The notes beneath the pieces were generated by a model. That model did not search any database. It worked only from the letters and a program-made list of their open reading frames with translations, and was not told the DNA's origin. From positions 1,072,716 through 1,136,715 of the forward strand of contig OZ243924.1 in the NCBI GenBank assembly GCA_965213725.1: 64,000 nucleotides of DNA. The letters are read 5' to 3'. This document shows positions 17,131 to 30,006 of the stretch, in pieces. Positions within the stretch are counted from its first letter, which is position 1; each line of letters starts with the position of its first letter. The DNA comes from Dehalococcoidia bacterium (GTDB lineage Bacteria > Chloroflexota > Dehalococcoidia > Lucifugimonadales > UBA3495). The position numbers and the translations under genes are program-made.

Positions 17131-19015
17131 TCAAAAGCTGGGTTGGTACGCCTGTCGCCACAGGGCTAGGTTGAGCAGTTTATAGAGCAGGGGGCCATTG
17201 TCCCGGCGCCGGCCGATATGTTCCCGGATACAGCCAGCCAGAGCCTCGTTGTCGAAAAGGCCGGAGCGCTGCGTTGCCGGGTCCAACAACACCGATTGCA
17301 GATAATCGGCCAAGGAAGTACGCAGCCAGTGGCTCATCGGCACACCGAAACCCGTCTTGGGCCGGTCCAGGATGTAATCCGGCAAGACACCGCGCAGGGC
17401 CCGCCGCAATATGTACTTCTTTTGCCGGCCCTTCACTTTATACTCCGACGGCAGTCCCATAGCATAGGCGGCTAGGCGGGTATCCACCATCGGCACGCGA
17501 ACTTCGATGCCGTGGGACATCGTGGACTTGTCCACCTTCTCAAAATAGAGGTCGGGCAGGATTATACTGGCGTCGGTGTGCAGAATTCTCTGCACGTTAT
17601 CGAGTCCCTCGAGACGCCGGTGTAGTTCCTTGTAACGCTGGAAGGGATCGGTGGACTCCAGGCAGGAACGACTCTCTGCCGTAAGGAACCGGGTCGGCGG
17701 CCGGTCCAGAGGTTCAGTGGATAGAATGTTAGCTACCAGAATTTCCGGGTTGGATTGACTGAATGCTCTTGACTCTACCAGCGGCCGGTTTGCGCCGGTC
17801 AATCGGCGGGCGAGAGGTTCCATTTTGACCATGAAACGGCTGGCCAACCGCCACCAGAACAAGTTCCTCATACGAGCGTACCGGGCGTAGCCGCCAAACA
17901 TCTCGTCGCCGCCCTCCCCTTGCAGGATGACCCTGGTATCGCCGTCCAGTTGTTCGCCCAAGAGGTACAAGGGGATGCTGGCCGGGTTGCCGAAGGGTCC
18001 ATCATGGCGATTAACCAGCCGTTCAATTACTTCGGGAACATTCCCGGCGGATACATGCAACTCGTGATGCTCAGTCCCAAAACTATCGGCCACCATTCGG
18101 GCTTGGGGCAGTTCATTGACGCCCCGGTCAAAGTCAAACCCGGCGGAGAAAGTTTTCAGCCGCCCGGCGTAATGTTTGCTGGCGAAAGCTGTAATGGCGG
18201 AGGAGTCGATACCGCCGCTCAAAAACACGCCAACAGGAACATCGCTCACCAAGTGACTTTTGACGGCGGCCTCGAGGAGCGAATGGACGGTGCGCGTTGC
18301 GGTGGGCAGATCGTCGGTGACGGGCTCCACATCGAGGATCGAGGCGAATGGCCCGGATTTTACGCCAGAGGCGTCGCTGGTCAGCAGATGACCGGGGAGC
18401 AACTTGCTGATGCCGGCGAACATCGTGTTGGCGCCCAGTGCAGTCTGGTAATACAGGTATTCGTGCAAACCCGGCCAGTCCACCCGCGCCGGGACTTCAC
18501 CGGAAGCCAGCATCGCCTTGATTTCCGAGCCGAATATCACCCCCCCCCCCCCCCCCGGGAATACAATAGTAGTAGAGCGGCTTGATGCCGAAGCGGTCCC
18601 GGGCCAGGCTCAGCCGCCGTTCCCGGCCGTCCCACACGGCCATAGCGAACATCCCCTCGAACTTGGGGAAGGCGGCCTCGCCCCACTCCATGTAGGAATG
18701 CAACGCGACCTCGGTGTCGGAATGGCCGCGGAAACGATGCCCCTTGCCTTCCAGGGACTTTCGCAAGGCGCGGAAATTATAGATTTCGCCGTTGTAGGCA
18801 ATCACGAAGCGGCCGTCGTCCGACTGCATCGGCTGATGCCCCTGCGCCGAAAGGTCAATGATGCTCAACCGGGTATGCGCGAACCCCACCGGGCCGCTGG
18901 CGTACACGCCGCTGTCGTCCGGCCCCCGGTGGCGAAGGGATGCGGCCATGCGCCGGAGTACGGCGCAGTCAACGCCGGGCCCGTTCGGGTGGTGTATTCC
19001 GCTGATTCCACACAT
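17131..19015 (-). pseudogene. asnB: asparagine synthase (glutamine-hydrolysing), reading frame broken at a G17 tract
   Basis: The N-terminal ORF starts MCGISG (class II amidotransferase Cys) and ends ...KPLYYYCIPGGGGGG. The C-terminal ORF starts (V)IFGSEIKAML... in another frame. One G fewer restores a single protein of about 628 aa. Confidence 0.85.
18540..18556 (-). repeat. 17-nt homopolymer (G17 on the coding strand) inside asnB
   Basis: The plus strand reads 17 consecutive C, bounded by a at 18539 and g at 18557. Confidence 0.95.
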
Positions 19016-19077
19016 ATCAGGCGAATTGTACACCTTTACCATAAACCTCTTCCAGAGGGAGAGGGAGCTTTTTTAAC

Positions 19078-19099
19078 GGTGTTGTTAGCAACAGTTGCC
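19078..19099 (+). repeat. solo IS1-type terminal repeat
   Basis: ggtgttgttagcaacagttgcc matches 20/22 to the end of IS1 copy 2 (ggtattgttagcaacagttgct). No transposase gene is adjacent. Confidence 0.7.
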
Positions 19100-19165
19100 G
19101 ATTGACCGGGTTGACCGGCGGACGGCCTATGTGCTAGGATTTTTCCCGCTAAGAGAGGGGCGCGG

Positions 19166-19864
19166 TTGGGATTCTTCCAGATTTTTGCAGTTTTGGGCAG
19201 GGCAGGGCGATTGGTCAATACCCGTTCCTCAGACGATAACCCTCCGGGCAATGGCGAGTGGCTCTCGTTGCGGGACGCCTGCCGTCTGCTGGACGTCAGC
19301 GATACGACTCTGCGGCAGTGGGCCGACGCCGGTCATCTGCGGGTGTACCGCACGCCGGGCGGACACCGCCGTTTCCTGCGCCAGGATGTGGAGTCGCTGA
19401 CCCGAACGGCCCGGTCGTCCGCCGCCCAGTCCAGCGGCGATTCCGGCGAGGGCCCGGCCCTGCGTCGAATCCGGCGTCGGCTGAGCCGAGACAGCGTTAC
19501 CCACCAATCGTGGTTCCAAGCCGTGGAGCCGGAAGGCCACGACCGGATGCGCTTGTTCGGGCGCCGCCTGCTTTCTCTTCTGTTGCAGGAGTCCGGGCCA
19601 CGGCGCCGCCGACAGGAATTGCTGGCCGAGGCCCGTATGCTGGGCCAAGAATACGGCTCGGAAATGCTGGAACGGAGCGTCGCCCTTACCGATACCGTGG
19701 AAGCGTTCGTCTTCTTCCGCAGCATGGTGCTGGACGGCGCTCCCGCCGCGTCGTGGTCGCGCATTCTTGAAACCTCCGACCGGGTTCTGGCCGGACTGTG
19801 CAGTTCCTACCAGCGCAATTTCAACGCAAACGAATTGCCCCCGGCCTCAAGGGGGAAGGGTTAG
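19166..19864 (+). CDS. MerR/excisionase-type HTH DNA-binding protein with an uncharacterised C-terminal domain
   Basis: LSLRDACRLLDVSDTTLRQWADAGHLRVYRTPGGHRRF. Track start is TTG at 19166, preceded by GAGAGGGG. The start is uncertain. Confidence 0.55.
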   Translation: MGFFQIFAVLGRAGRLVNTRSSDDNPPGNGEWLSLRDACRLLDVSDTTLRQWADAGHLRVYRTPGGHRRFLRQDVESLTRTARSSAAQSSGDSGEGPALRRIRRRLSRDSVTHQSWFQAVEPEGHDRMRLFGRRLLSLLLQESGPRRRRQELLAEARMLGQEYGSEMLERSVALTDTVEAFVFFRSMVLDGAPAASWSRILETSDRVLAGLCSSYQRNFNANELPPASRGKG

Positions 19865-19872
19865 AGCGGGGG
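19838..19872 (+). repeat. dispersed hairpin plus G-rich element (family A)
   Basis: cccccggcc-tcaa-gggggaagggttagagcgggggg overlaps the 3' end of the HTH gene. Confidence 0.6.
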
Positions 19873-19896
19873 GCGATCTCCCGCAGGAAAGAGGTA

Positions 19897-20955
19897 ATGG
19901 CTATGGATATGACTGACCGCAAGCTGCTCAACCTGATTCAAGGCCCGTTCCCAATGGTGGAGCGGCCCTACTTGGACTTGGCGGAACAGTTGGAAATTAC
20001 CGAAGAGGACGCGCTGGCCCGGCTCACCGAGCTGAAGCGGCAGAACGTCCTCCGCCAGATAAGCGCCATCTTCGACACCCGGCGGCTGGGCTACAAGACC
20101 ACGCTGGTGGCTATGGCCTTTGAGCCGGGAACCCTGCACCGGGCGGCCATGGAAATCAACCGGCATCCCGGCGTCAGCCACAACTACGCCCGGGAAGGCT
20201 CTTATTACAATCTCTGGTTCACCTTGGCCGTGCCGCCGGAGCATGACCTGGAAGCTACGGCGCAGCGCATGGGCCGCAAGACCGGAGCGCTGGAATCACG
20301 CATCATGCCCACCATCCGCTTCTTCAAAATCGGCGTCAACTTCGATATGGTGAAGCAGCAGGGGTCGTCCTATAACTTCAGCCCCGACGGGTTCGACAAG
20401 GCCGAAGCCGATAGCTGGAACAAGCCGCAGCCCGTAACCGAGTGGGAAAAGGATGCCATCCGCGAGATGCAGGAAGACCTGCCGCTGATTTCCCGGCCCT
20501 TTGGCCCCATCGCGGAGCGGCTGGGCATCACCACCCCGGAACTGTTCGCGCTGGCCGAGGATTTCCAGCGGCGCCGCATCATGCGCCGCTACAGCGCGGT
20601 GCTGCACCACCGCCGCTCCGGTTTCCGCTCCAACGCCATGATTGTCTGGAAGGTGCCACCGGAACGCTCCGAGGAAGTGGGCATGATCATGGCCGGGCAC
20701 AAGGCGGTGACCCACTGCTACGAGCGGCCCACTTTCCCCGACTGGCCCTATACCCACTTCACCATGGTGCACGCCACCACGCCGGAGGGCTGCGAGGAAT
20801 ACAGCCGTGAAATCGCCGAGGCCACCGGCATCACCGACCGCTTGGCCTTGTACAGCACGCGGGAATACAAGAAGACACGGGTGCGCTACTTCGTTCCCGA
20901 CTATGACGAATATCTGGAGTCGGAGGCTCCCGGCGCCCTCGCTACTGCGGACTGA
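19897..20955 (+). CDS. fused siroheme decarboxylase-like protein (AhbA/AhbB or NirD/L/G/H family, two Lrp/AsnC-like repeats)
   Basis: ATG at 19897 after AGGAAAGAGG. Two repeats of the pattern DRKLLNLIQGPFPMVERPY...LAEQLEITEE...L and KDAIREMQEDLPLISRPFGPIAERLGITTPE. Confidence 0.75.
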   Translation: MAMDMTDRKLLNLIQGPFPMVERPYLDLAEQLEITEEDALARLTELKRQNVLRQISAIFDTRRLGYKTTLVAMAFEPGTLHRAAMEINRHPGVSHNYAREGSYYNLWFTLAVPPEHDLEATAQRMGRKTGALESRIMPTIRFFKIGVNFDMVKQQGSSYNFSPDGFDKAEADSWNKPQPVTEWEKDAIREMQEDLPLISRPFGPIAERLGITTPELFALAEDFQRRRIMRRYSAVLHHRRSGFRSNAMIVWKVPPERSEEVGMIMAGHKAVTHCYERPTFPDWPYTHFTMVHATTPEGCEEYSREIAEATGITDRLALYSTREYKKTRVRYFVPDYDEYLESEAPGALATAD

Positions 20956-21055
20956 ATTCACCCCGGACGCCTGAATCAGGATTTTCTAATCCCGTTGATC
21001 CCTAATGACCCTGTAAATCTTGACTCAGACATCAGCGTCAAAAACGGATGGCTGT

Positions 21056-21790
21056 ATGACCGCCTACTACCCGGTCTATCTCAACCTGAGAGGCCGCCGC
21101 TGCGTCATCGTCGGCGGCGGGGCCGTGGCCGAGGGCAAGATTGGCCGGCTGCTGGACTCCGGTGCGGACATCTGCGTCGTCAGCCCCGACGCGACGCCCG
21201 GCATCCGGCAGTTCGTTGCCGACGGGGCCGTGCGCTGGGAGCAGCGCCAGTACCGGCGCGGCGACCTTGACGGCGCGTTCATAGCCATCGCCGCCACCAA
21301 CGTTCGCGAGGTCAACCGGCGCATCTTCGAGGAAGCGGAAGCGCGGGGCGTCATGCTCAACGCGGTGGACGACCCGCCCAATTGCAGCTTCATCGCCCCG
21401 TCCATCGTACAGCGCGGGCCGGTGACCCTGGCAATCTCCACCGGCGGCGTATCGCCGGCGCTGGCCCGCAAGCTGCGCGAGGCGCTACAGGCGTCGGAGG
21501 ATCTGGCTTGGGCCGACCTGTCCGGCGTGATGGCGGAGGCCCGCGCCCGCCTTCGGGAGGCCGGGCTGCTGTCCCGCATTGCCCCCCAACGCTGGCAGTG
21601 CTGCCTCACCCCGCAACTGCTGGCGATGGCGCAGGACGGCCGGCAGGCTGAAGCTGCGGAGACCCTGCTGGCCGGGCTGATGGGCGATGATGGCCGCGGA
21701 CTGTGCCCGGACATTTCGCAATGCCAGCCGGAAAGCTGCCAACGGCGCGAACTCCCGCGAAATTCCCCTCTCCCCAGAGGAAAGGGCTAG
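21056..21790 (+). CDS. sirC: precorrin-2 dehydrogenase / sirohydrochlorin ferrochelatase (SirC/CysG N-terminal type)
   Basis: YYPVYLNLRGRRCVIVGGGAVAEGKIGRLLDSGADICVVSP is a Rossmann signature. ATG at 21056 is preferred over the track TTG at 21020. Confidence 0.8.
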   Translation: MTAYYPVYLNLRGRRCVIVGGGAVAEGKIGRLLDSGADICVVSPDATPGIRQFVADGAVRWEQRQYRRGDLDGAFIAIAATNVREVNRRIFEEAEARGVMLNAVDDPPNCSFIAPSIVQRGPVTLAISTGGVSPALARKLREALQASEDLAWADLSGVMAEARARLREAGLLSRIAPQRWQCCLTPQLLAMAQDGRQAEAAETLLAGLMGDDGRGLCPDISQCQPESCQRRELPRNSPLPRGKG

Positions 21791-21798
21791 GGTGAGGG
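21765..21798 (+). repeat. dispersed hairpin plus G-rich element (family A)
   Basis: cccctctcccc-aga-ggaaagggctagggtgaggg covers the sirC stop and ends 7 nt before the hemC ATG. Confidence 0.7.
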
Positions 21799-21805
21799 CT
21801 TCGCT

Positions 21806-22762
21806 ATGACCTCCAACCGGTCCATCCGGGTCGGCAGCCGGGGCAGCCCCTTGGCGCTGATACAGGATGACGAGGCTATCACGCAACTCAAGGCGCGCCA
21901 CCCGGAGCTGGAGTTCGAGGTGGTCGTAGTGCGCACCAGCGGCGACGCCAACCAGTCCGCGCCGTTGGCCGGCATGGGGCTGGGCGTGTTCGTCAGCGAG
22001 CTGGAGGAACGCCTGCTGTCCGGCGATCTGGACCTGGCCGTTCACAGCCTCAAGGACTTGCCCACCAGCCTCCCCGACGGCCTGACCCTGGGCGCGATTC
22101 TGGAGCGCAAAGACCCCCGGGACGTTCTGGTGAACCGCTGGAACTGCCCCCCGGAAGAGCTGCCCCACGGCGCCCGCATCGGCACCAGCAGCCCTCGCCG
22201 CGCCGCTCAACTGCGCCGCTATGTCCCCAATGTGGAGGTCGTGCCGATCCGGGGCAACGTCGAAACCCGGCTGCGCAAGGCCGAGGGCGACGAGGCCGAC
22301 GGCGCGGTGCTGGCCGCCGCCGGGCTGGCGCGCTTGGGCTTGAAGGACCGGGTGGCCGCCTATCTGTCTCCCCAGCGTTTCGTGCCGCCGCCGGGCCAGG
22401 GCGCGCTGGCGGTGGAAGTGCGGGCCGACGACCAACGAATGCTGGACATCCTGGAGTCCATCGAACACCCGGCCACCCGTTTCGAGGTGACCGCGGAGCG
22501 GGCCTTTCTCGAAACCCTGGGCGGCGGCTGCTCCATCCCCGTGGGAGCCTACGCCCGCTGCATGGGCCGCGAACTGCTGATGACCGTCTTCCTCAGCAAC
22601 ACCGAAGGCTCCCGCGTTTTCACCGCCAAGGTTGATGGCCTCAAGCACGACCCCAAGCAGCTTGCCGGCGACGCCTACCTGGCCGTAGCCGAGCGCGGCG
22701 GCGCCGACCTGCTGGAAGGCGCTCGCCGGCCGCAAGGCCCGCCCGCGACGGAGAATCTGTGA
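21806..22762 (+). CDS. hemC: hydroxymethylbilane synthase (porphobilinogen deaminase)
   Basis: IRVGSRGSPLALIQ...VRTSGD...LKDLPT...IGTSSPRRAAQL...RGNVETRL...GGCSIPVGAY. Confidence 0.9.
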   Translation: MTSNRSIRVGSRGSPLALIQDDEAITQLKARHPELEFEVVVVRTSGDANQSAPLAGMGLGVFVSELEERLLSGDLDLAVHSLKDLPTSLPDGLTLGAILERKDPRDVLVNRWNCPPEELPHGARIGTSSPRRAAQLRRYVPNVEVVPIRGNVETRLRKAEGDEADGAVLAAAGLARLGLKDRVAAYLSPQRFVPPPGQGALAVEVRADDQRMLDILESIEHPATRFEVTAERAFLETLGGGCSIPVGAYARCMGRELLMTVFLSNTEGSRVFTAKVDGLKHDPKQLAGDAYLAVAERGGADLLEGARRPQGPPATENL

Positions 22763-23574
22763 TGGAGACCGCAGCCGTCAAGTATGACCCTAGGGCGCTG
22801 GCTGTCGGCCAAGCCGTGTTGCGCGAAACGGGAGCGAAGGACGTTATCCTGTTTGGCTCCCGCGCCCGCGGCGACTACCGCGACGATTCCGACATAGACC
22901 TGCTGCTAATCCATCAGTCCATCCTTTGTCTCGACTCCAAATGCGATGAAGTCAGGGACAAATTCCGCCGTAATGCCGAAGCAAAAGCCCATGTCCTCTA
23001 CGGAACGCCGGTATTGGTAGACTTGACGTGGTTCACGCCCAAAGAATTCGACCGGATGCGGCGCAGCCACAACGACGTAAGCGCCATAGCGGCCGAGGAA
23101 GGGGTTGCCATGAGCGGTGGGCCGGCCAACGAGCAATACCCCAACGATGACTACTCGGACGAGTGGAGCGTAACTTCCCAGCGTTGCTATCACGCCAAAA
23201 TACATCTGCAAGGGATGTCTTCGTTGGTACAAGCCGGACAGCCGGATTTATTGATCGGTCAGCAGGCCCAGCAGTCCCTGGAACACGCGATAAAGGCCCT
23301 AATCTCGGCCAGCGGAAACCGATACCGGCGCGTCCATAACTTGGAGGAGCTGGAGCGCGATATGCGCCGGGCGGATCCCGGGTTCAGTTACCGTATGGAG
23401 TCTCCGCTGCGAATGCTTAGCGATTACGCCGGGCCGGAAATATATCGGGTAAAGTCCAATGCGTCTATAGGCGACAGCAACGAACTCCATCGCCAAGTTG
23501 AAAGTGACATTCAGCAAGTCTTCCGGCGCATCGCTATCCTGACCGGCAAAGACCCCTGGCAAGAGCAGCTCTGA
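22762..23574 (+). CDS. fused minimal nucleotidyltransferase (MNT) - HEPN domain protein
   Basis: N-terminal ILFGSRARGDYRDDSDIDLLLI (GSxxxG..SDxD). C-terminal HEPN-type Rx4H in NRYRRVHNL. ATG overlaps the hemC TGA (TGATG). Local GC is about 52% in a counted line, against about 67% in the neighbours. Confidence 0.8.
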   Translation: METAAVKYDPRALAVGQAVLRETGAKDVILFGSRARGDYRDDSDIDLLLIHQSILCLDSKCDEVRDKFRRNAEAKAHVLYGTPVLVDLTWFTPKEFDRMRRSHNDVSAIAAEEGVAMSGGPANEQYPNDDYSDEWSVTSQRCYHAKIHLQGMSSLVQAGQPDLLIGQQAQQSLEHAIKALISASGNRYRRVHNLEELERDMRRADPGFSYRMESPLRMLSDYAGPEIYRVKSNASIGDSNELHRQVESDIQQVFRRIAILTGKDPWQEQL

Positions 23575-23613
23575 AAACCCTCTGCGGCCTCGGGTTTAAT
23601 CTCTACGAATAGG

Positions 23614-25248
23614 ATGAATACGTTGGCGGGCAAAGTCTACCTAATCGGCGCCGGGCCCGGCGACCCCGGCCTGATCACCGTCAAGGGCCGCGACGTTTTG
23701 GCGCGGGCCGACGTTGTGGTCTACGACCGGCTGGCCCACCCGTCGCTGCTGGACTACGCGCCTCCCTCCGCCGAGCGGGTGTTCGCAGGCAAGGCACGGG
23801 GGCGGCAGGAGCTGACGCAGGACGGCATCAACGCCCTGCTGGTGGAGCGGGCGCAGGCCGGGCTGACCGTGGCCCGGCTCAAGGGGGGCGATCCCTTCGT
23901 GTTTGGGCGCGGCGGCGAGGAAGCGCTGGCCTTGGCCCGTGGCGGCATCCCCTTCGAGGTGGTGCCGGGCGTGTCGTCCGCGGTGGCGGCCCCGGCCTAT
24001 GCCGGCATCCCGGTCACCCACCGGGGCATCGCCGCCGGGTTCACCGTGGTCAGCGGCAGCGAAGACCCGGCCAAGCCCGTGTCGCCTGATGGTGGTTCCG
24101 GGGTGCGCTGGGACGAACTGGCCCGGTCGCTGGCCGCCCGCGGCGGGACGCTGCTGACACTGATGGGCTGGGCGTCCATCGAGGGGATACTGGACGGGTT
24201 GCAACGGGCGGGGCTTTCCGCCGCTACGCCGGTGGCCCTGATTCAGTGGGGAACTTGGAATCGTCAGAAAACGGTGACCGGAACGCTGGCCGACGCCGCC
24301 GACCGGGGCCGCGCCGCCGGGCTGGCCGCGCCGGTGGCGGCGGTCATCGGCGAGGTGGTGCGGCTGCGCGAGGAACTGGCCTGGTTCGACAACCGCCCGC
24401 TGTTCGGCCAGCGAGTGCTGGTCACCCGCTCCCGCACTCAGGCGTCTCGGCTGTGCGAGCTGCTGGAGGACGCCGGAGCGCAGCCGGTGGAGTTGCCCGC
24501 CATCGAGATTGCCCCGCCGCAGGATTTCGCGCCGCTGGACCGCGCCGTATGCCGCTTGTCATCCTACGCCTGGGTCATCTTCGCCAGCGTCAACGCCGTG
24601 GACGCGGTGTTCGCCCGGCTGGATGAGCAAGGCCGGGACGCCCGCGCTTTTGGAGCGGCCCGCGTGGGGGCCATCGGCCCGGCCACCGCCGCCGCCCTGG
24701 CGCAGCGGGGCATCCGAGCCGACTTCACGCCGTCGCGCTCCGTATCGGCGGCGGCCCTGGAGGAACTGGCGGCTTACCCCTGGAGCGGCTTATCCGTGCT
24801 GCTGCCGTCGGCGGACATCGGGCGTGACGAGCTGGCCGAAGGGCTGTCCCGCCTTGGCGCCGCCGTCGAACGGGTGACCGCCTACCGCACCATACCGGCG
24901 CCGGACGCGGCTCAGCGGGCCGCCCGCGCCTTCACCGACGGCATAGACGTCGTTACCTTCACCAGCTCGTCCACGGTTCGCAACCTGCTTTCCATACTGG
25001 ACCGGAACGGACTGGACCGGAACGGCAACGGACGCGCCGCACTGGACCGGAACGGCGTCGGACGCGCCGCACTGGACGGCAGCCTGGTCGCCTGCATTGG
25101 CCCCGTAACCGCCGCCGCCGCCCGCGAGCTGGGCCTCCGGGTGGACATCGAAGCCCAAGAACACACCGTGGAAGGGCTGGCCTCCGCTCTGGTTGATTAT
25201 TTTTCCAACACAGAGACCGCCGAGAACAGTGAACAGATCAAAAATTGA
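23614..25248 (+). CDS. cobA-hemD: bifunctional uroporphyrinogen-III C-methyltransferase / uroporphyrinogen-III synthase
   Basis: N-terminal VYLIGAGPGDPGLITVKG...VVYDRL...LKGGDPFVFGRGGEE. The C-terminal half has HemD-like repeats (VLVTR...FTSSSTVRN). Confidence 0.9.
   Translation: MNTLAGKVYLIGAGPGDPGLITVKGRDVLARADVVVYDRLAHPSLLDYAPPSAERVFAGKARGRQELTQDGINALLVERAQAGLTVARLKGGDPFVFGRGGEEALALARGGIPFEVVPGVSSAVAAPAYAGIPVTHRGIAAGFTVVSGSEDPAKPVSPDGGSGVRWDELARSLAARGGTLLTLMGWASIEGILDGLQRAGLSAATPVALIQWGTWNRQKTVTGTLADAADRGRAAGLAAPVAAVIGEVVRLREELAWFDNRPLFGQRVLVTRSRTQASRLCELLEDAGAQPVELPAIEIAPPQDFAPLDRAVCRLSSYAWVIFASVNAVDAVFARLDEQGRDARAFGAARVGAIGPATAAALAQRGIRADFTPSRSVSAAALEELAAYPWSGLSVLLPSADIGRDELAEGLSRLGAAVERVTAYRTIPAPDAAQRAARAFTDGIDVVTFTSSSTVRNLLSILDRNGLDRNGNGRAALDRNGVGRAALDGSLVACIGPVTAAAARELGLRVDIEAQEHTVEGLASALVDYFSNTETAENSEQIKN
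24997..25080 (+). repeat. in-frame 15/30-bp tandem repeat inside the HemD domain
   Basis: ctggaccggaacgg units encode LDRNG-LDRNGNGRAA-LDRNGVGRAA-LDG. Confidence 0.85.
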
Positions 25249-25289
25249 ATCTCTGCGCCCTCTGAGCATAATTAAAAAGGAGAAAAGCA

Positions 25290-26273
25290 ATGACTGCCTA
25301 TCCCGACACCCGGTTGCGCCGCCTGCGCGGTTCGCACCCGATGCGCAATCTGGCGCAGGAAACCCGCCTTTCGCCCAAAGAGTTCATCTACCCTATGTTC
25401 GTGATGCACGGACAAGGGAAGCGTGAACCCATCGAGCCGATGCCGGGCTGTAGCCAGATGTCGCTGGACGTGATGTCCGAGGAAGTGGGCGAAGCGGCGG
25501 AACTGGGCATCGGGGGGGTGCTGCTCTTCGGCCTGCCCGCCGAGAAAGACCCGCTGGGGACGGAGGGCTACGACCCGGAGGGAATCGTGCAGGAGGCGGT
25601 GCGCGTCATCAAGCGCGACCACCCCGAGATGCTGGTGTCCACCGACGTGTGTATGTGCGAGTACACCGACCACGGCCATTGCGGCGTCATAGACAACGGG
25701 CGGGTGGACAACGACCGGACGTTGGAGCTGCTGGCCCGCACTGCCCTGTCCCACGTGCAGGCCGGGGCCGACCTGCCCGCGCCGTCGGCGATGATGGACG
25801 GGCAAGTATGGGCCATCCGCCAAGCCCTCAACGCCAACGGCTATGACGACACGCCCATTATGGGCTACGCCGCCAAGTACGCCTCCGCCTTCTACGGCCC
25901 CTTCCGCGTTGCCGCCGGCTCCACGCCCCAGTTCGGCGACCGCAAGACCTACCAGATGGACCCGGCCAACGCCCGCATGGCCATGCGCGAAATCGAGAGC
26001 GACATCGCCGAGGGGGCCGACATCGTGATGGTCAAGCCCGCCATGGCCTACATGGACGTCATCCGCGAGGCGCGCCAGCGCTTCAACCACCCCCTGGCCG
26101 CTTACAACGTCAGCGGCGAATACTCTATGGTCAAGGCCGCCTCCCAGCAGGGCTGGGTAAATGAGCGCCCGGTCACCACCGAACTGCTGACCGGCATCAA
26201 ACGCGCCGGGGCCGACATCATCATCAGCTACTTCGCCAAAGATATCGCCTGCTGGCAGCGGGAAACGGAGTAG
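25290..26273 (+). CDS. hemB: porphobilinogen synthase (delta-aminolevulinate dehydratase), Zn-type
   Basis: AAAGGAG RBS. Contains RLRRLR...FIYPMFV...DVCMCEYTDHGHCG...YAAKYASAFYGPFR...MVKPA. Confidence 0.95.
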   Translation: MTAYPDTRLRRLRGSHPMRNLAQETRLSPKEFIYPMFVMHGQGKREPIEPMPGCSQMSLDVMSEEVGEAAELGIGGVLLFGLPAEKDPLGTEGYDPEGIVQEAVRVIKRDHPEMLVSTDVCMCEYTDHGHCGVIDNGRVDNDRTLELLARTALSHVQAGADLPAPSAMMDGQVWAIRQALNANGYDDTPIMGYAAKYASAFYGPFRVAAGSTPQFGDRKTYQMDPANARMAMREIESDIAEGADIVMVKPAMAYMDVIREARQRFNHPLAAYNVSGEYSMVKAASQQGWVNERPVTTELLTGIKRAGADIIISYFAKDIACWQRETE

Positions 26274-26659
26274 TCCGGGAAATCCCCTCTCCAGGAGGGC
26301 GAGGGCGCGCCCTTGCGGAGGTAACGGACTGCCCTTTTGGAAAGCAGACAAGATTGGCGAGGATCAAGCGGCTGCGCAAGGGTTAGGCGGGTGTGGCAAT
26401 GACCTAGCGTGATGCTGCCGCAAGCATGGCGGAGTTGGGCAATGGCCGCAATGACGCCTGAAGAGCGTTGCGCGCGCTTGGAGACTCGCCAAGAGAACGC
26501 GGCAGCCAAATAAGGCTTGACCAATCCCGAAACCCGTCTGATTAAGCGGCTGGCGGGTTTGATGATTGCCGCAACTGCTTTCGCAACCCTGATCGAGCGA
26601 ATCAGTTAACAGACTGCTGGCCCGGTTCTGTTGCATTTTGCGGGGTAGTGGCAGTATTG

Positions 26660-28217
26660 TCACTCCCCACGGTTCCTTGACGCTATCAGTTCCGTCTGGT
26701 CGCCAATCCGCCCGCCCCGGCGCCGGTAGCCGTACTGCGGAAGGTTCAAGGGTTTCCCAGCCAGCAGGTTTTCTACGCTGAATCCCTGTATCACCGGGTA
26801 GGTGTCAGAATCGTCGTGGAACGTGGCCCTGCTGCGCTGGTTCTCCACTGTCCGCATAAACCGGCCAAAGCATACCATCACGCCGGCGGTGGCGCCGAAA
26901 TCATCAACACTGGTCTTCAACGCCCGCACCGCGTCCGGCGTCACGTTGCCCCCCTTGACCTGGATGATGGCGAACTCCGGCGTTGGCTTTTTCCCTAGCC
27001 GGAAGGGGTAGAATTCCAATACCCCGTCCACCCCGCCATCGGCGCCCTTGCTTCCCGGTTCGTGAAACATCCCACTGGCTCCGATTGCCCCGCAAACCCA
27101 CTTCTCAAACTCGAACTTGTCCCGCTGGGCCAGTTGCTCGGCGCCAGGGACATTGACCGGCACGCCCCGCACCAGCACGTCGTCGGTGGTCAGATGCTCA
27201 AAGTTGCGCAGTATCCGCTCCCTGACCAGCCCGATGGAGAAGGCTGATATGTCAATTCCAATCCAGCGGCGGCCCAGCCGCTCAGCGGCGTGTACCGCCG
27301 TGCCGCAACCGCAAAATGGATCCAGCACCAAGCCGTCTGGCGGGGAGGATGCGGCAATCACCCGCTCCAATAGGGCCAATGGCTTTTGCGTGGGGTAGCC
27401 AAGATGTTCTTTCGCCCATGGCAGCAAGCTATGATGCACAAAGACATCATCCGGGAGCTTTCCTTTGTCATAATCTCTTTCTGAACCGTCAGCCCGCTTT
27501 TGCCCGGAATCCCATTTGTGCTCGACTCTGACCTCATCCACGTTGAAGACGTAGCCTTTGGGCTTTTTGGAATAGAATAGCAGGACATCGTGTTTGCGCG
27601 CCCACCGTTTTTTTGATGCTCCGCCGCCGCTGTAATACCAGATAAACTCGTTCTGGAAGCTGGCCTTTCCAAAGATGACGTCCATAACGAGTTTGAGGTA
27701 GTGGCTGGCGGTAGGGTCACAGTGCAGGTAAATGGAACCCGTACCGGCCAGCACCCGGCGCATCGGGATTAGCCGCGCCGCCATGTTGAGCAGGTAAGCG
27801 TCCAGCCGGTACTTGCGGGTTTTGCCCCCCCCCGTTTATGTCAACTCGCTGCGCCAAGCGCACAATGTCGGCCAGCAACCGGGTGTGGGGGCCTGCCGAC
27901 AACTCCCACAGCAACTCGTCCTCTTTCGGCCCCCACGTCCAAGTATCGTTGAACGCCTCTGCCGGGCGGGCATCCCGGTCTTTGCCCTTGAAGGGCAGGT
28001 TCTAGTGACTGTTGGAGTTGAAAGGCGGGTCTAGGTAAATCAGGTCAACGGAACCCGTCGGTAGGGCCAGTTCGTCCTTCAGGACATTCAGGCAGTCGTC
28101 GGCGTACAGGAGTCGGTTCACGGCGCAACCTCTCCAGTCTGGTATGTACATATCTACGCCGATTTTATACTGGAAGCTGGCAAGGGCGTCAATTCGCAGG
28201 GTAGGCCCGCTAGCCAC
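26660..28217 (-). pseudogene. beta-class N4/N6 DNA methyltransferase fused to an Mrr-like PD-(D/E)xK nuclease domain; disrupted
   Basis: DLIYLDPPFNSNSH then in-frame TAG at 28002-28004. Frame changes at the G9 tract at 27825-27833 (..VDINGGG|KTRKYRLDAYLLNMAARL..). Downstream: GSIYLHCDP, DPFCGCGT, then ADGGVDGVLEF...AIIQVKGG. The probable start is ATG 28151. Confidence 0.8.
27825..27833 (-). repeat. G9 homopolymer at the methyltransferase frameshift site
   Basis: Nine consecutive C on the plus strand. Eight would join the two reading frames. Confidence 0.9.
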
Positions 28218-28308
28218 TACCCCGCAAAATGCAACAGAACCGCTGGCCCTTGTGAGTGCCCCGCCGCATTGGACTTGTATGGCGGCGGGGTTTTATAGCT
28301 GAGGGAAG

Positions 28309-28381
28309 TACCCCTGGAGGGACTCGAACCCCCGACGCGCGACTTAGGACGCCGCCGCTCTATCCTCTGAGCTACAGGGGC
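28309..28381 (-). tRNA. tRNA-Arg (anticodon CCU)
   Basis: Manual fold of the reverse complement: GCCCCTG-TA-GCTC-AGAGGATA-GAGC-G-GCGGC-GTCCTAA-GTCGC-GCGTC-GGGGG-TTCGAGT-CCCTC-CAGGGGT-A. It has a G1-U72 wobble and no encoded CCA. Confidence 0.8.
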
Positions 28382-28401
28382 ATGACACAGCATCAGATAC
28401 C

Positions 28402-28430
28402 AGCATCCCAAAAGGCCGGTTGCCTGTCAA
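28402..28430 (-). promoter_or_regulatory. possible sigma70-type promoter for tRNA-Arg
   Basis: On the minus strand: TTGACA, a 17-nt spacer, then GATGCT. It ends about 20 nt upstream of the tRNA 5' end. Confidence 0.3.
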
Positions 28431-28498
28431 GGGGCTTGCCGAAGCCTCCGTCCCTTTCCGATTCCAACCCCGCCGTTACCGGCTTTTGGCGTCCGCCC

Positions 28499-28523
28499 GT
28501 CATTGCGGCGAAAGCAGTAATCC
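28499..28523 (+). repeat. REP-like palindromic unit (family B), degenerate copy
   Basis: gtcattgcggcgaaagcagtaatcc compares with gtcattcccgcgaaggcgggaaccc at 16610. A ccgtattccc motif follows, as in the 16.6 kb copy. Confidence 0.6.
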
Positions 28524-28661
28524 GGCGCTGTACACGGCAAGGACTTTCCGTATTCCCCCTTGCCCCGTATTCCCGAATATCGGTGAGTGGCGGAGTGACT
28601 TTGGAGAGGCTATGGACGCCTCCAACGAACCGCAGGGCAACGAACCGCCGGGCGGCTGCGC

Positions 28662-29966
28662 TCATTCCAAGCGCCGGATGCGCGGCAGGGCGACGGCTGA
28701 GATGACGCTGATGGAGGCCAGCGCCGCGCCGTTTACCAGCAGCGCCCCCGGAGCGCCCACGGCCCCGGCCAAGGCCCCCACGCCCACGTGGCCCACCGGA
28801 GCGAATCCTATGCTGAGCACCCACGATCCCATAGCCCGCCCCCGTTCCTCATCGGACACCGCGTCCTGCATCAGGGTCTTATAGAGGGTGTCAACGGCCA
28901 TGGCGCAGGCGTTGACCAGCAGCAGCACCCCGATGAAGGAGTAGATGTTGTTCGTCAGGGAGAAGGCCATCAGCCCGGCGCCGAAACCGGCCGCTGTGAC
29001 AAACATCATCAGCCCCTTCTTCCTGACTCCCCCCAGTCCGGCCAGCACCCACAGCCCCAGCAGTCCCCCGCCTTGGCGGGAGGCGGTCATAACGCCCAGC
29101 CCGGCGGGGCCGACGTGAAGCACCTCCTTGGCGAACACCGGCAGCAGGGTCATGTGCGTGAAGCCGAGTATTTCGGTGGCCGCCGTCAGCAGCATGAGGG
29201 CCAGCAGCAGCCGGTAGTTCCGCAGCAGCCGGACGTATCCCGTCAGGTTTCGCAGCACCGACGCAGCGGCAGGCCGCAAGGAGCGGCCGGTGTCTCCTAT
29301 CGTCAGGGTCGCCGCCGCAGACAGCAGGTAGCATACCGCCGCCGCCGCGAACTGCCAGCCGGCGCCCGCGGCCTCGATCACCGCCCCGGAGACCAGCGAA
29401 CCGGCGATTCCTCCGCCCTGCATGGCCATGGCTCCCAAGGCCAGCCCGTTCAGGGCATACTCCGGGCCTACGATGTCGTAGGTGAAGGTTTGCCGGACGG
29501 TTAGGACAAAAGCGAAAGCGCCGCCCAAGCCGGCAACCAGGGCTATGATTGCCCAGACGTTCTCCAGGCCGCCCAGCAGCAGCAGGGCCATAATCAAGGC
29601 AACGGCGGCCGCTCCCAGCGTGCCTCCCTGAAGCAGCGCCCGCCGCTCCCAGCGGTCGGCGATGGCCCCGGACAGCAGCCCCAGCAGGAAGAAGGGCAGC
29701 ATACGGGCCGCGGCCCCCACGCCCACCATCAGCTCCGAGCCGGTCAGCTCGAAGATGAGCCAGCCGACCGACACCTGCTCCATCCCCGTCGCCAGGGAGT
29801 AGAGAAGGGTGGAGGCCCACAGCAGGCGGAAGTCCCTGATGCGGAGGGAGACTGCCCAGTTCCTGATACCGCTCACAATGCCCGATGATACACCTTGCGT
29901 TGAGAGTGTGCGCAATAAATCCGCTCCCCTTATAGGGAGCCGGAGCAATGGCGGACTCCCGCGCAT
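28662..29966 (-). CDS. MFS transporter
   Basis: About 12 hydrophobic segments. Contains IRDFRLLWAST and GAIADRWERR, typical of the MFS_1/EntS-like N-terminus. The start codon is uncertain. Confidence 0.8.
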   Translation of the reverse strand: MRGSPPLLRLPIRGADLLRTLSTQGVSSGIVSGIRNWAVSLRIRDFRLLWASTLLYSLATGMEQVSVGWLIFELTGSELMVGVGAAARMLPFFLLGLLSGAIADRWERRALLQGGTLGAAAVALIMALLLLGGLENVWAIIALVAGLGGAFAFVLTVRQTFTYDIVGPEYALNGLALGAMAMQGGGIAGSLVSGAVIEAAGAGWQFAAAAVCYLLSAAATLTIGDTGRSLRPAAASVLRNLTGYVRLLRNYRLLLALMLLTAATEILGFTHMTLLPVFAKEVLHVGPAGLGVMTASRQGGGLLGLWVLAGLGGVRKKGLMMFVTAAGFGAGLMAFSLTNNIYSFIGVLLLVNACAMAVDTLYKTLMQDAVSDEERGRAMGSWVLSIGFAPVGHVGVGALAGAVGAPGALLVNGAALASISVISAVALPRIRRLE

Positions 29967-29975
29967 CCCAATTAT

Positions 29976-30006
29976 CCCCTCTTGCGGAGAAGGGTTGGGG
30001 TGGAAG
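29976..30006 (+). repeat. dispersed hairpin plus G-rich element (family A)
   Basis: cccctcttgcggagaagggttggggtggaag lies in the divergent intergenic region. Confidence 0.55.

Follow-up and report, generated by a model that had tools for sequence, protein, structure and literature searches.

A fused MNT-HEPN gene in a Dehalococcoidia tetrapyrrole operon occupies a family-wide cargo slot at the hemC stop codon

INTRODUCTION

Proteins that carry a minimal nucleotidyltransferase (MNT) and a HEPN domain on one chain have a single experimental model, FhepTA (SO_1440) of Shewanella oneidensis, a fused MNT-HEPN toxin-antitoxin (TA) (Yao et al., NAR 2026, PMC13000451). The HEPN half of FhepTA is toxic alone and the full-length protein is not; its MNT adds three AMP to the tyrosine of the motif RφxxxHxY and blocks HEPN dimerization (PMC13000451). 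Here we describe a fused MNT-HEPN gene, whose product we call P0001, that lies inside a tetrapyrrole operon of a Dehalococcoidia bacterium. The DNA analyzed is a stretch of 64,000 nt (contig OZ243924.1, positions 1,072,716 to 1,136,715 of the forward strand), hereafter the window, and unprefixed coordinates are counted from its first letter. By analogy, FhepTA would be the best available model for P0001.

Class II HEPN/MNT modules are defined by the pairing of PF05168 with PF01909 (Yao et al. 2020, PMC7641770), and for HEPN-T domains both MNT fusions and clustering with restriction-modification (R-M) genes have been listed by Anantharaman et al. (PMC3710099). At the level of genome organization, hotspots flanked by core genes are known from the core defense hotspots of P. 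aeruginosa (PMC10250203) and the defense islands of E. coli (PMC10121019), and recombination at the core genes on their flanks was reported as the route by which the TA islets of Photorhabdus spread (PMC13617665). We report that TA and R-M modules are carried in a cargo slot at the junction between hemC and cobA, and we favor, with a probability of about 0.6, the reading of P0001 as a TA-like single-protein module that occupies this slot.

RESULTS

The MNT-HEPN open reading frame (ORF; 22762–23574, + strand), the present tenant of the slot, is 813 nt long, encodes 270 amino acids (aa), and is intact with no internal stop. It lies between hemC (porphobilinogen deaminase; 21806–22762, +; Pfam Porphobil_deam, 256 bits) and a fused cobA-hemD gene (23614–25248, +; Pfam TP_methylase and HEM4), the upstream and downstream homology arms of the slot. 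Its ATG (22762–22764) shares the A with the hemC stop TGA (22760–22762), which gives TGATG (…GAGAATCTGTGATGGAG…); both the position of the gene and this overlap agree with the initial annotation of the window. We located the gene, hemC and cobA in genomes of the genus, family and order, and added metagenome contigs with close homologues. Of the 32 genus members examined, 12 hold MNT-HEPN at the junction (two with two copies), one holds a frameshifted MNT-HEPN remnant, three hold VapBC, two a type II R-M system and one an HSDR_N protein alone; in the remaining 13 the junction is empty. The empty junction is likely the ancestral state, because hemC is followed directly by cobA in five genomes from other families of the order. 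Across 136 genomes of the family (uncultured Dehalococcoidia), the gap between hemC and cobA was under 150 nt (empty) in 68, 150–500 nt in 14, 500–1200 nt in 36, 1200–3500 nt in 17 and 4185 nt in one. Something thus sits in the slot in about half of the family genomes, and MNT-HEPN is found in about 7% of this sample. The neighboring junctions, sirC|hemC and cobA|hemB, are short wherever they were seen (~25 and 8 genomes, respectively). The family-wide gap survey and these short neighboring junctions together mark the hemC|cobA site as a cargo slot that is specific and found throughout the family; it receives TA and R-M modules, and MNT-HEPN is one of its tenants.

At least nine kinds of cargo were identified in the slot. 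Besides fused MNT-HEPN, the tenants are VapBC (PIN, 68 bits), a Zeta toxin (Zeta_toxin, 39 bits) with a 97-aa partner, DUF4258 (38.5 bits) with a zinc-ribbon protein, PaREP1 (49 bits), a HEPN-like pair (a 111-aa protein with a HEPN-like protein, the g18-type cargo), type II R-M genes, HSDR_N proteins (31.8 bits), a membrane coiled-coil protein, or stacks such as Zeta with R-M. An N6_N4 methylase (N6_N4_Mtase, 97.5 bits) occurs with a protein of ~240 aa, and these methylases are 67–95% identical across four genera. The cassettes are small (0.7–2.6 kb); twenty sampled gaps had a GC content of 47–59%, and their annotatable ORFs were all co-oriented with the operon. The cargo was poorer in GC than the operon in each sampled case. 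In one case (genome G129, locus L064, G129:C1:313300-317700), g18-type cargo is interrupted by an insert of ~3 kb that holds a small ORF, a 546-aa methylase-type gene and an IS1-like transposase, and the HEPN-like ORF is split in two. This transposase is the sole mobile-element gene seen in the slot. The HSDR_N (restriction-enzyme N-terminal nuclease-like) protein of ~370 aa (L013, 6842–7957; L067; L068) stands alone in G097 and G100 and behind MNT-HEPN in G156/L013, and may be a further single-gene defense candidate. A different ORF of 242 aa with no Pfam match follows MNT-HEPN in L055 (3079–3807).

All 23 tested MNT-HEPN copies with at least 51% identity (21 genomes or contigs, four GTDB genera) were placed directly after hemC, and homologues at 41–45% identity were sited elsewhere, among PIN and methylase genes. 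The initial annotation had proposed a horizontally acquired, captured module at an unusual address for a conflict or addiction-type gene. The first part holds insofar as the gene is an accessory insert, absent from the junction in the five genomes outside the family and in the 13 empty congeners; synteny of the hemC–cobA junction shows the gene in some relatives and an empty site in others, not a gene that is universal with native codon usage. A recent or singular capture finds no support, since the clade at ≥51% identity is locked to the junction in four genera. Nor is the address unusual in this lineage, where the same slot also receives VapBC, Zeta, DUF4258, PaREP1 and R-M modules, co-tenants of the very type that had been suggested for the MNT-HEPN gene.

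Not all copies are intact. The remnant in G024 (L048, G024:C1:3126016-3126661) is frameshifted and still starts at the hemC stop (TAATG); its first 26 residues are 81% identical to P0001 and the rest is in pieces, a natural in-place erosion of the cassette. Other degraded copies are interrupted (L054) or truncated (G111). Elsewhere on the chromosome, up to 7–11 fused MNT-HEPN paralogues with 30–45% identity occur (G064, G083, G005, G015 and others), a lineage expansion typical of TA families, and a single additional full-length paralogue is present in the genome from which the window comes (C1:2800999-2801643, 38% identity).

Pairwise identity in the MNT-HEPN gene did not follow identity in hemC (Mantel r = 0.09, p = 0.25). 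The window genome and the contig that encodes P0003 (L014) were 97% identical in hemC and 73% in MNT-HEPN, and G015 and G005 were 98% and 71% identical, respectively; for G018 and the distal copy of G008, both values were 86%. Along the window and L014, nucleotide identity was 96–98% across hemC and the first ~150 nt of the MNT-HEPN gene, fell to 60–77% between codons 51 and 245, and returned to 88–97% thereafter. The number of synonymous substitutions per site (dS) for the same pair was 0.074 in hemC, 0.053 in codons 1–50 and 1.33 in codons 51–245, a step of ~20-fold; between G015 and G005, dS was 0.087 in hemC and ~1.0 in the MNT-HEPN gene. Identity and the dS step together delimit a swapped allelic core at 22912–23496 (+; codons 51–245), which comprises the remaining part of the nucleotidyltransferase (NTase) domain, the linker and most of the HEPN domain. 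An independent contig (run X7) had flanks ~96% identical to the window and breaks at 22913 and 23470; most of the interval between them lay below the 85% threshold, and 23260–23391 aligned at ~79% identity. The breakpoints coincide with the best-conserved portions of the gene, which are the stretch coding for GSRARGDY..DSDIDLL and the 3′ end. The ratio of nonsynonymous to synonymous substitution rates (dN/dS) of P0001 against its orthologues was 0.16–0.26, showing that the gene is under purifying selection. The sharp dS step at such dN/dS values indicates that codons 51–245 were replaced by an old, functional allele and did not diverge by rapid mutation. Fast point-mutational divergence or positive selection was rejected as the source of the low identity, because dS rose ~20-fold alongside the nonsynonymous divergence, with a dN/dS of ~0.2.

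Two genomes of the genus carry tandem copies. In G017, whose copies share 53% identity, the interval between them consists of a 424-nt cobA 5′ fragment joined to a 106-nt hemC 3′ fragment, which match the resident sequences at 96.0% and 93.4%, respectively. In G008 the copies share 63% identity, and an exact 82-nt repeat of the hemC tail, with …GGAGAACCTGTGATG in it, stands before the second. A recent tandem duplication was rejected given these low identities and the 4–7% by which the duplicated arms in G017 differ from the resident arms. Such arrays are the product expected of single-crossover insertion of a fragment composed of a hemC tail, a cassette and a cobA head; duplication followed by allele replacement could also yield them. 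The window's MNT-HEPN gene is not bracketed by direct or inverted repeats and has no adjoining mobility gene or integrase in the window, and insertion by a transposon, integron or integrase was ruled out on these grounds. Taken together, these results show that cassettes and alleles move by homologous recombination, for which the hemC and cobA arms and the two ends of the MNT-HEPN gene, all of them conserved, serve as anchors; old, divergent alleles therefore stand in near-identical backgrounds.

We then consider the protein itself. Pfam searches of P0001 returned NTP_transf_2 (33 bits, cutoff 21), Polbeta (27.9, cutoff 26.9) and HEPN PF05168 (26.6, cutoff 22), all above the gathering score. 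The NTase motif GSx10DxD (G32, S33 … D44-I-D46, then LL) lies in residues 32–48, GSRARGDYRDDSDIDLL (22855–22905, +), and aligns to the MNT antitoxins 2rff and 8xeh; the HEPN Rx4H motif RYRRVH occupies residues 187–192 (23320–23337, +) and is followed by N-L, with no tyrosine two residues after the histidine (H+2). Both motifs are where the initial annotation had put them. A database search found ~90 clusters of full-length relatives at 50–75% identity, plus a tail at 30–45%. In an alignment of 75 relatives, on which all conservation figures rest, G32, S33, D44 and D46 were invariant (75/75), R187 was kept in 57 (76%), Y188 in 73 (97%) and H192 in 72 (96%), so that the catalytic residues are present on proper alignment and the description of a fused minimal-NTase/HEPN protein stands. 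The H+2 position (L194) was Leu in 67 and Ile in eight, and the conserved tyrosine is Y188 at R+1. Each of R141, H144, H148, E174, H175 and K178 was kept in >90% of the relatives.

NTP_transf_2 and PF05168 were matched by all 75 relatives, and none of them matched DUF86/HepT (PF01934), NTase_sub_bind (PF08780; both at E ≤ 0.1) or KNTase_C. P0001 is thus a class II MNT-HEPN module on a single chain, in which a minimal nucleotidyltransferase (PF01909) is joined to a HEPN domain of the PF05168/HEPN-T type. The likeness to type VII MntA/HepT that had been drawn earlier applies to the GSX10DXD motif and not to the HEPN half, which is of class II (PF05168) and without the RX4HXY tyrosine. Judged by sequence, P0001 falls outside the FhepTA/type VII HepT-MntA class I family, because its HEPN domain is PF05168 and its H+2 residue is Leu/Ile. 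An AlphaFold (AF2) model of P0001 was very confident (pLDDT 92.9, pTM 0.88). Its whole-chain fold neighbors were ANT(4′)/KNTase, ANT(9), LinB and HalB (TM 0.35–0.55, 9–17% identity); the NTase half was nearest to MNT antitoxins and HI0073, and the HEPN half to AF0298 (2hsb, TMt 0.68). When the PDB was searched by sequence, only the NTase half found relatives (2rff and the Legionella MNT 8xeh), and the HEPN half reached weakly to TT1696 (E = 0.29). NCBIfam MntA_antitoxin scored 27 bits (cutoff 60), and HalB of Hailong scored 29 bits (cutoff 190) over residues 29–53 only, short of a family match. PADLOC matched only the candidate PDC-S09 (profiles of ~100 aa), in the NTase half (residues 17–98). 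An identity with PDC-S09 or Hailong HalB was therefore rejected, as neither gave a whole-protein match at the family cutoff.

The MNT-HEPN gene stands within a block of genes that all lie on the same strand. The first is a fused AhbA/AhbB-like (NirDL-type) siroheme decarboxylase gene (19798–20955, +; Pfam NirdL-like_HTH and AsnC_trans_reg2, two stretches each), followed by a sirC-type precorrin-2 dehydrogenase gene (21020–21790, +; NAD_binding_7 and Sirohm_synth_M), hemC, MNT-HEPN, cobA-hemD and hemB (ALAD; 25290–26273, +; Pfam ALAD, 480 bits), with which the block ends in the window. A GGAG at 22750–22753 lies 8 nt upstream of the MNT-HEPN ATG, within the final hemC codons. The hemC C-terminus, …A-T-E-N-L-stop, is conserved across the genus and encodes GGAG(A/G)A before the stop, empty sites included; the insertion point would therefore offer a ready-made ribosome-binding site, which may favor the capture of promoter-less cassettes. 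The overlapping junction is common to seven genomes and the L014 contig, and five MNT-HEPN copies begin 30–100 nt downstream of the hemC stop instead. Downstream, a 39-nt spacer (23575–23613, +) retains the native cobA leader; in a comparison of the junctions of 29 genomes, it was similar to the short hemC–cobA spacer at empty sites. Inside the MNT-HEPN gene, the + strand showed no promoter- or terminator-like site and the minus strand only one weak promoter-like match; an internal promoter or terminator acting in the direction of the operon was accordingly discarded. No Rfam match was found in 18000–30000 except a tRNA (28309–28381), and an RNA antitoxin or other structured RNA near the gene was rejected on this basis. 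From the stop/start overlap, the GGAG and the absence of terminators, we infer that the gene is expressed by operon read-through and translational coupling to hemC.

The gene is poorer in GC than its neighbors, as the initial annotation had pointed out; the contrast of ~52% against ~67% given there overstated the difference. GC content was 57.6% in the whole gene (48% to 63% in single 60-nt lines), 69.9% in hemC, 70.9% in cobA-hemD and 63.2% in the genome. The gene lies at the 5.6th percentile of the genome for GC and at the 20th percentile, below the genome median, for GC at third codon positions (GC3), and its flanking genes lie at the 95th–99th GC percentile; the contrast is therefore due in part to unusually GC-rich neighbors. 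GC3 was 0.62–0.73 in all MNT-HEPN orthologues, and because the lower GC3 is common to all of them, it is not a mark of recent arrival. With a GC3 at the 20th percentile, GC-rich flanks and a low GC3 in every orthologue, a recent foreign origin judged by composition was rejected.

Several further observations concern the surroundings of the slot. Directly after hemB, an ORF at 26660–27784 (− strand) carries N6_N4_Mtase and Mrr_cat domains; lying within a few hundred bases of the operon, it forms a second accessory locus of the R-M type. The intact 546-aa MTase-Mrr-like gene within the G129 cargo is related to it. In the HemD part of cobA-hemD, an in-frame repeat (…LDRNGLDRNGNGRAALDRNGVGRAALDG…; 24997–25080) differs between strains, and 30 nt at 25029 are missing from a contig of another run with 96% identity, which supports copy-number variation of this HemD-loop repeat between strains. 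In G018 (L016, G018:C1:959524-960254), an in-frame TGA splits the cobA-hemD gene just downstream of MNT-HEPN, with a break in the match near residues 115–135; this essential gene beside the slot is either a pseudogene in G018 or misassembled. One related sequencing run carries the label sponge metagenome.

DISCUSSION

Our results place an intact, conserved fused MNT-HEPN gene in a slot shared with TA and R-M modules, and we favor the TA-like reading of P0001 because of the clear Rx4H of its clade and the nature of these co-tenants. On that reading, and with the class I fusion FhepTA as template, the HEPN half would be a latent RNase built on R187...H192, and the N-terminal NTase would restrain it, in cis or in trans within a dimer. 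Restraint might come from nucleotidylylation of a conserved tyrosine, with Y188 as the candidate, from a block on HEPN dimerization, or from both, and the outcome would be a one-gene TA or abortive-infection (Abi)-type module. Several points weigh against this reading. The reported class II consensus has a conserved tyrosine and is without RX4H, and class II HEPN/MNT biochemistry was described as nonexistent (Yao et al. 2020, PMC7641770); HEPN domains fused to MNT usually are without RNase residues and serve as substrate-binding domains, according to Anantharaman et al. (PMC3710099). In P0001, the acceptor tyrosine that defines type VII is absent at H+2 (L194), the third catalytic carboxylate, D87, is kept in just 73% of the relatives and R187 in 76%, and over its full length the fold is most like that of aminoglycoside and lincosamide nucleotidyltransferases (TM ~0.5). 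Finally, co-transcription and translational coupling are read from the sequence.

These fold matches underlie the main rival, a KNTase-like nucleotidyltransferase that acts on a small molecule (an antibiotic or another metabolite) and whose HEPN-like domain is the substrate- and nucleotide-binding part of a domain-swapped dimer, not an RNase. The top full-length folds were ANT(4′)-Ia/KNTase (6p01, 6un8 and 1kny; TM 0.48–0.55, ~267 columns), ANT(9), LinB and AadA, but identity to the ANT structures is just 9–13%. E174 and K178, which are conserved and lie on one HEPN helix, are reminiscent of the catalytic Glu/Lys pair of KNTase. Against such a function, KNTase_C was matched by 0 of 75 members, NCBIfam ANT(9) models scored 14–15 bits against cutoffs of 340–505, and all other annotatable tenants of the slot are TA or R-M modules. 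Anantharaman et al. hold most MNT-fused HEPN domains to be inactive and substrate-binding, which would fit the rival, whereas the Aminoglycoside_NT_C family in their survey is without Rx4-6H (PMC3710099) and P0001 conserves R187/H192. We therefore regard a small-molecule transferase as unlikely.

That the gene has been domesticated as a regulator of the tetrapyrrole pathway, which modifies an enzyme or cleaves or tunes the operon mRNA, is a suggestion we find quite improbable. The placement of 23 of 23 tested copies between hemC and cobA in four genera, the apparent coupling to hemC in many genomes and the purifying selection would all suit a regulator, and GlnE and GlnD are NTase-HEPN-like proteins that regulate enzymes (PMC3710099). 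The fixed position is nonetheless accounted for by movement through flanking homology alone; the gene is in only 13 of 32 congeners (remnant counted) and about 7% of the family sample, the slot being elsewhere empty or filled with VapBC, Zeta, R-M or other cassettes, and it is degraded in G024 and L054. Ancient alleles swapped between near-identical backgrounds and tandem stacking are traits of conflict genes. The degraded copies (G024, L054 and G111), the patchy presence and the GC3 below the genome median would fit a neutral passenger or decaying remnant that has no present function and is kept only because imprecise deletion would damage an essential operon. We give this very little credence, since the window copy is intact, dN/dS is 0.16–0.26 over deep divergence (dS above 1), the catalytic motifs are invariant or nearly so, and the AF2 model is very confident.

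Possible, though only tentatively so, is a more far-reaching version of the TA-like reading, in which the hemC stop is a 'safe-harbor' arena where unrelated addiction or defense modules compete, MNT-HEPN is a genuine class II one-protein TA/Abi RNase, and the swapped codons 51–245 define mutually non-neutralizing specificity types that were long kept by balancing selection. If this were true, an essential, constitutively read operon would give its cargo free transcription, translational coupling and protection against deletion, and would act as a filter that passes only promoter-less, terminator-less, co-oriented cassettes; MNT-HEPN would then be the first functional assignment for class II.

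The class II pairing is abundant in archaea and thermophilic bacteria. The present clade offers a compact single-gene representative of it, with a well-folding (predicted) protein and intact motifs, together with a natural allele series and natural knock-outs with which to ask whether class II is a real TA system. The locus also indicates that TA/R-M slots are not confined to tRNA genes, prophages and inter-operon gaps, and can persist for long inside an essential biosynthetic operon, without mobility genes and relying on their neighbors for transcription, apparently for translation, and for recombination. For annotation, a conflict-type gene in a Dehalococcoidia metabolic operon is not to be taken as a member of the pathway. 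The hemC slot illustrates cleanly, in a natural setting, how a cargo slot can lie within an operon, and it does not contradict current understanding.

Compared with known systems, P0001 resembles FhepTA in being one chain of ~270–276 aa, with an N-terminal MNT that carries GSx10DxD and a C-terminal HEPN with R...H, and in its accessory, patchy occurrence. It differs in that the HEPN of FhepTA, here compared by description only, is HepT-like (class I) with RφxxxHxY, whereas that of P0001 is PF05168 with Leu/Ile at H+2; FhepTA also sits in a prophage or mobile island, and the P0001 gene is inside a biosynthetic operon without mobility genes. Of the features of type VII HepT/MntA, P0001 has the GSX10DXD motif of the MNT, and both the PF01934/PF08780 HEPN and the RX4HXY acceptor tyrosine are absent. 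The two-gene modules of class II (AF0298, 2hsb; TM0613, 1o3u; TT1696, 1ufb) consist of the same two Pfam families as P0001, but as two adjacent genes and not as a single fused ORF, and the class II consensus was reported without RX4H (PMC7641770), whereas the P0001 clade keeps a clear Rx4H. KNTase/ANT(4′)-Ia, ANT(9), LinB and AadA likewise join a Pol-beta-type NTase to a helical HEPN-like domain; their C-terminal domains are without Rx4-6H (PMC3710099), unlike P0001, which thus resembles ANT at the fold level only.

As for the site, the hemC slot shares with the core-gene-flanked hotspots and TA islets a single conserved address, alternative TA or R-M cargo in each strain and the lack of recognizable mobile-element genes; as in a TA islet, alternative cargo or none lies between the same core genes and is exchanged through the flanks. 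In contrast to the hotspots, however, the slot is inside a co-directional essential operon, at a stop codon, and neither between operons nor adjacent to a tRNA gene. Its identified cargo is all co-oriented, in some cases apparently coupled to the upstream gene, and its cassettes are very small; exchange breakpoints fall inside a cargo gene, and the slot persists across many genera of the family. Collectively, core-flanked hotspots, recombining TA islets and, from comparative genomics, the fused MNT/HEPN-T architecture are already known, and what is distinct here is the intra-operon address at a stop codon, the at least nine kinds of cargo locked to that site, the intragenic breakpoints and the class II HEPN.

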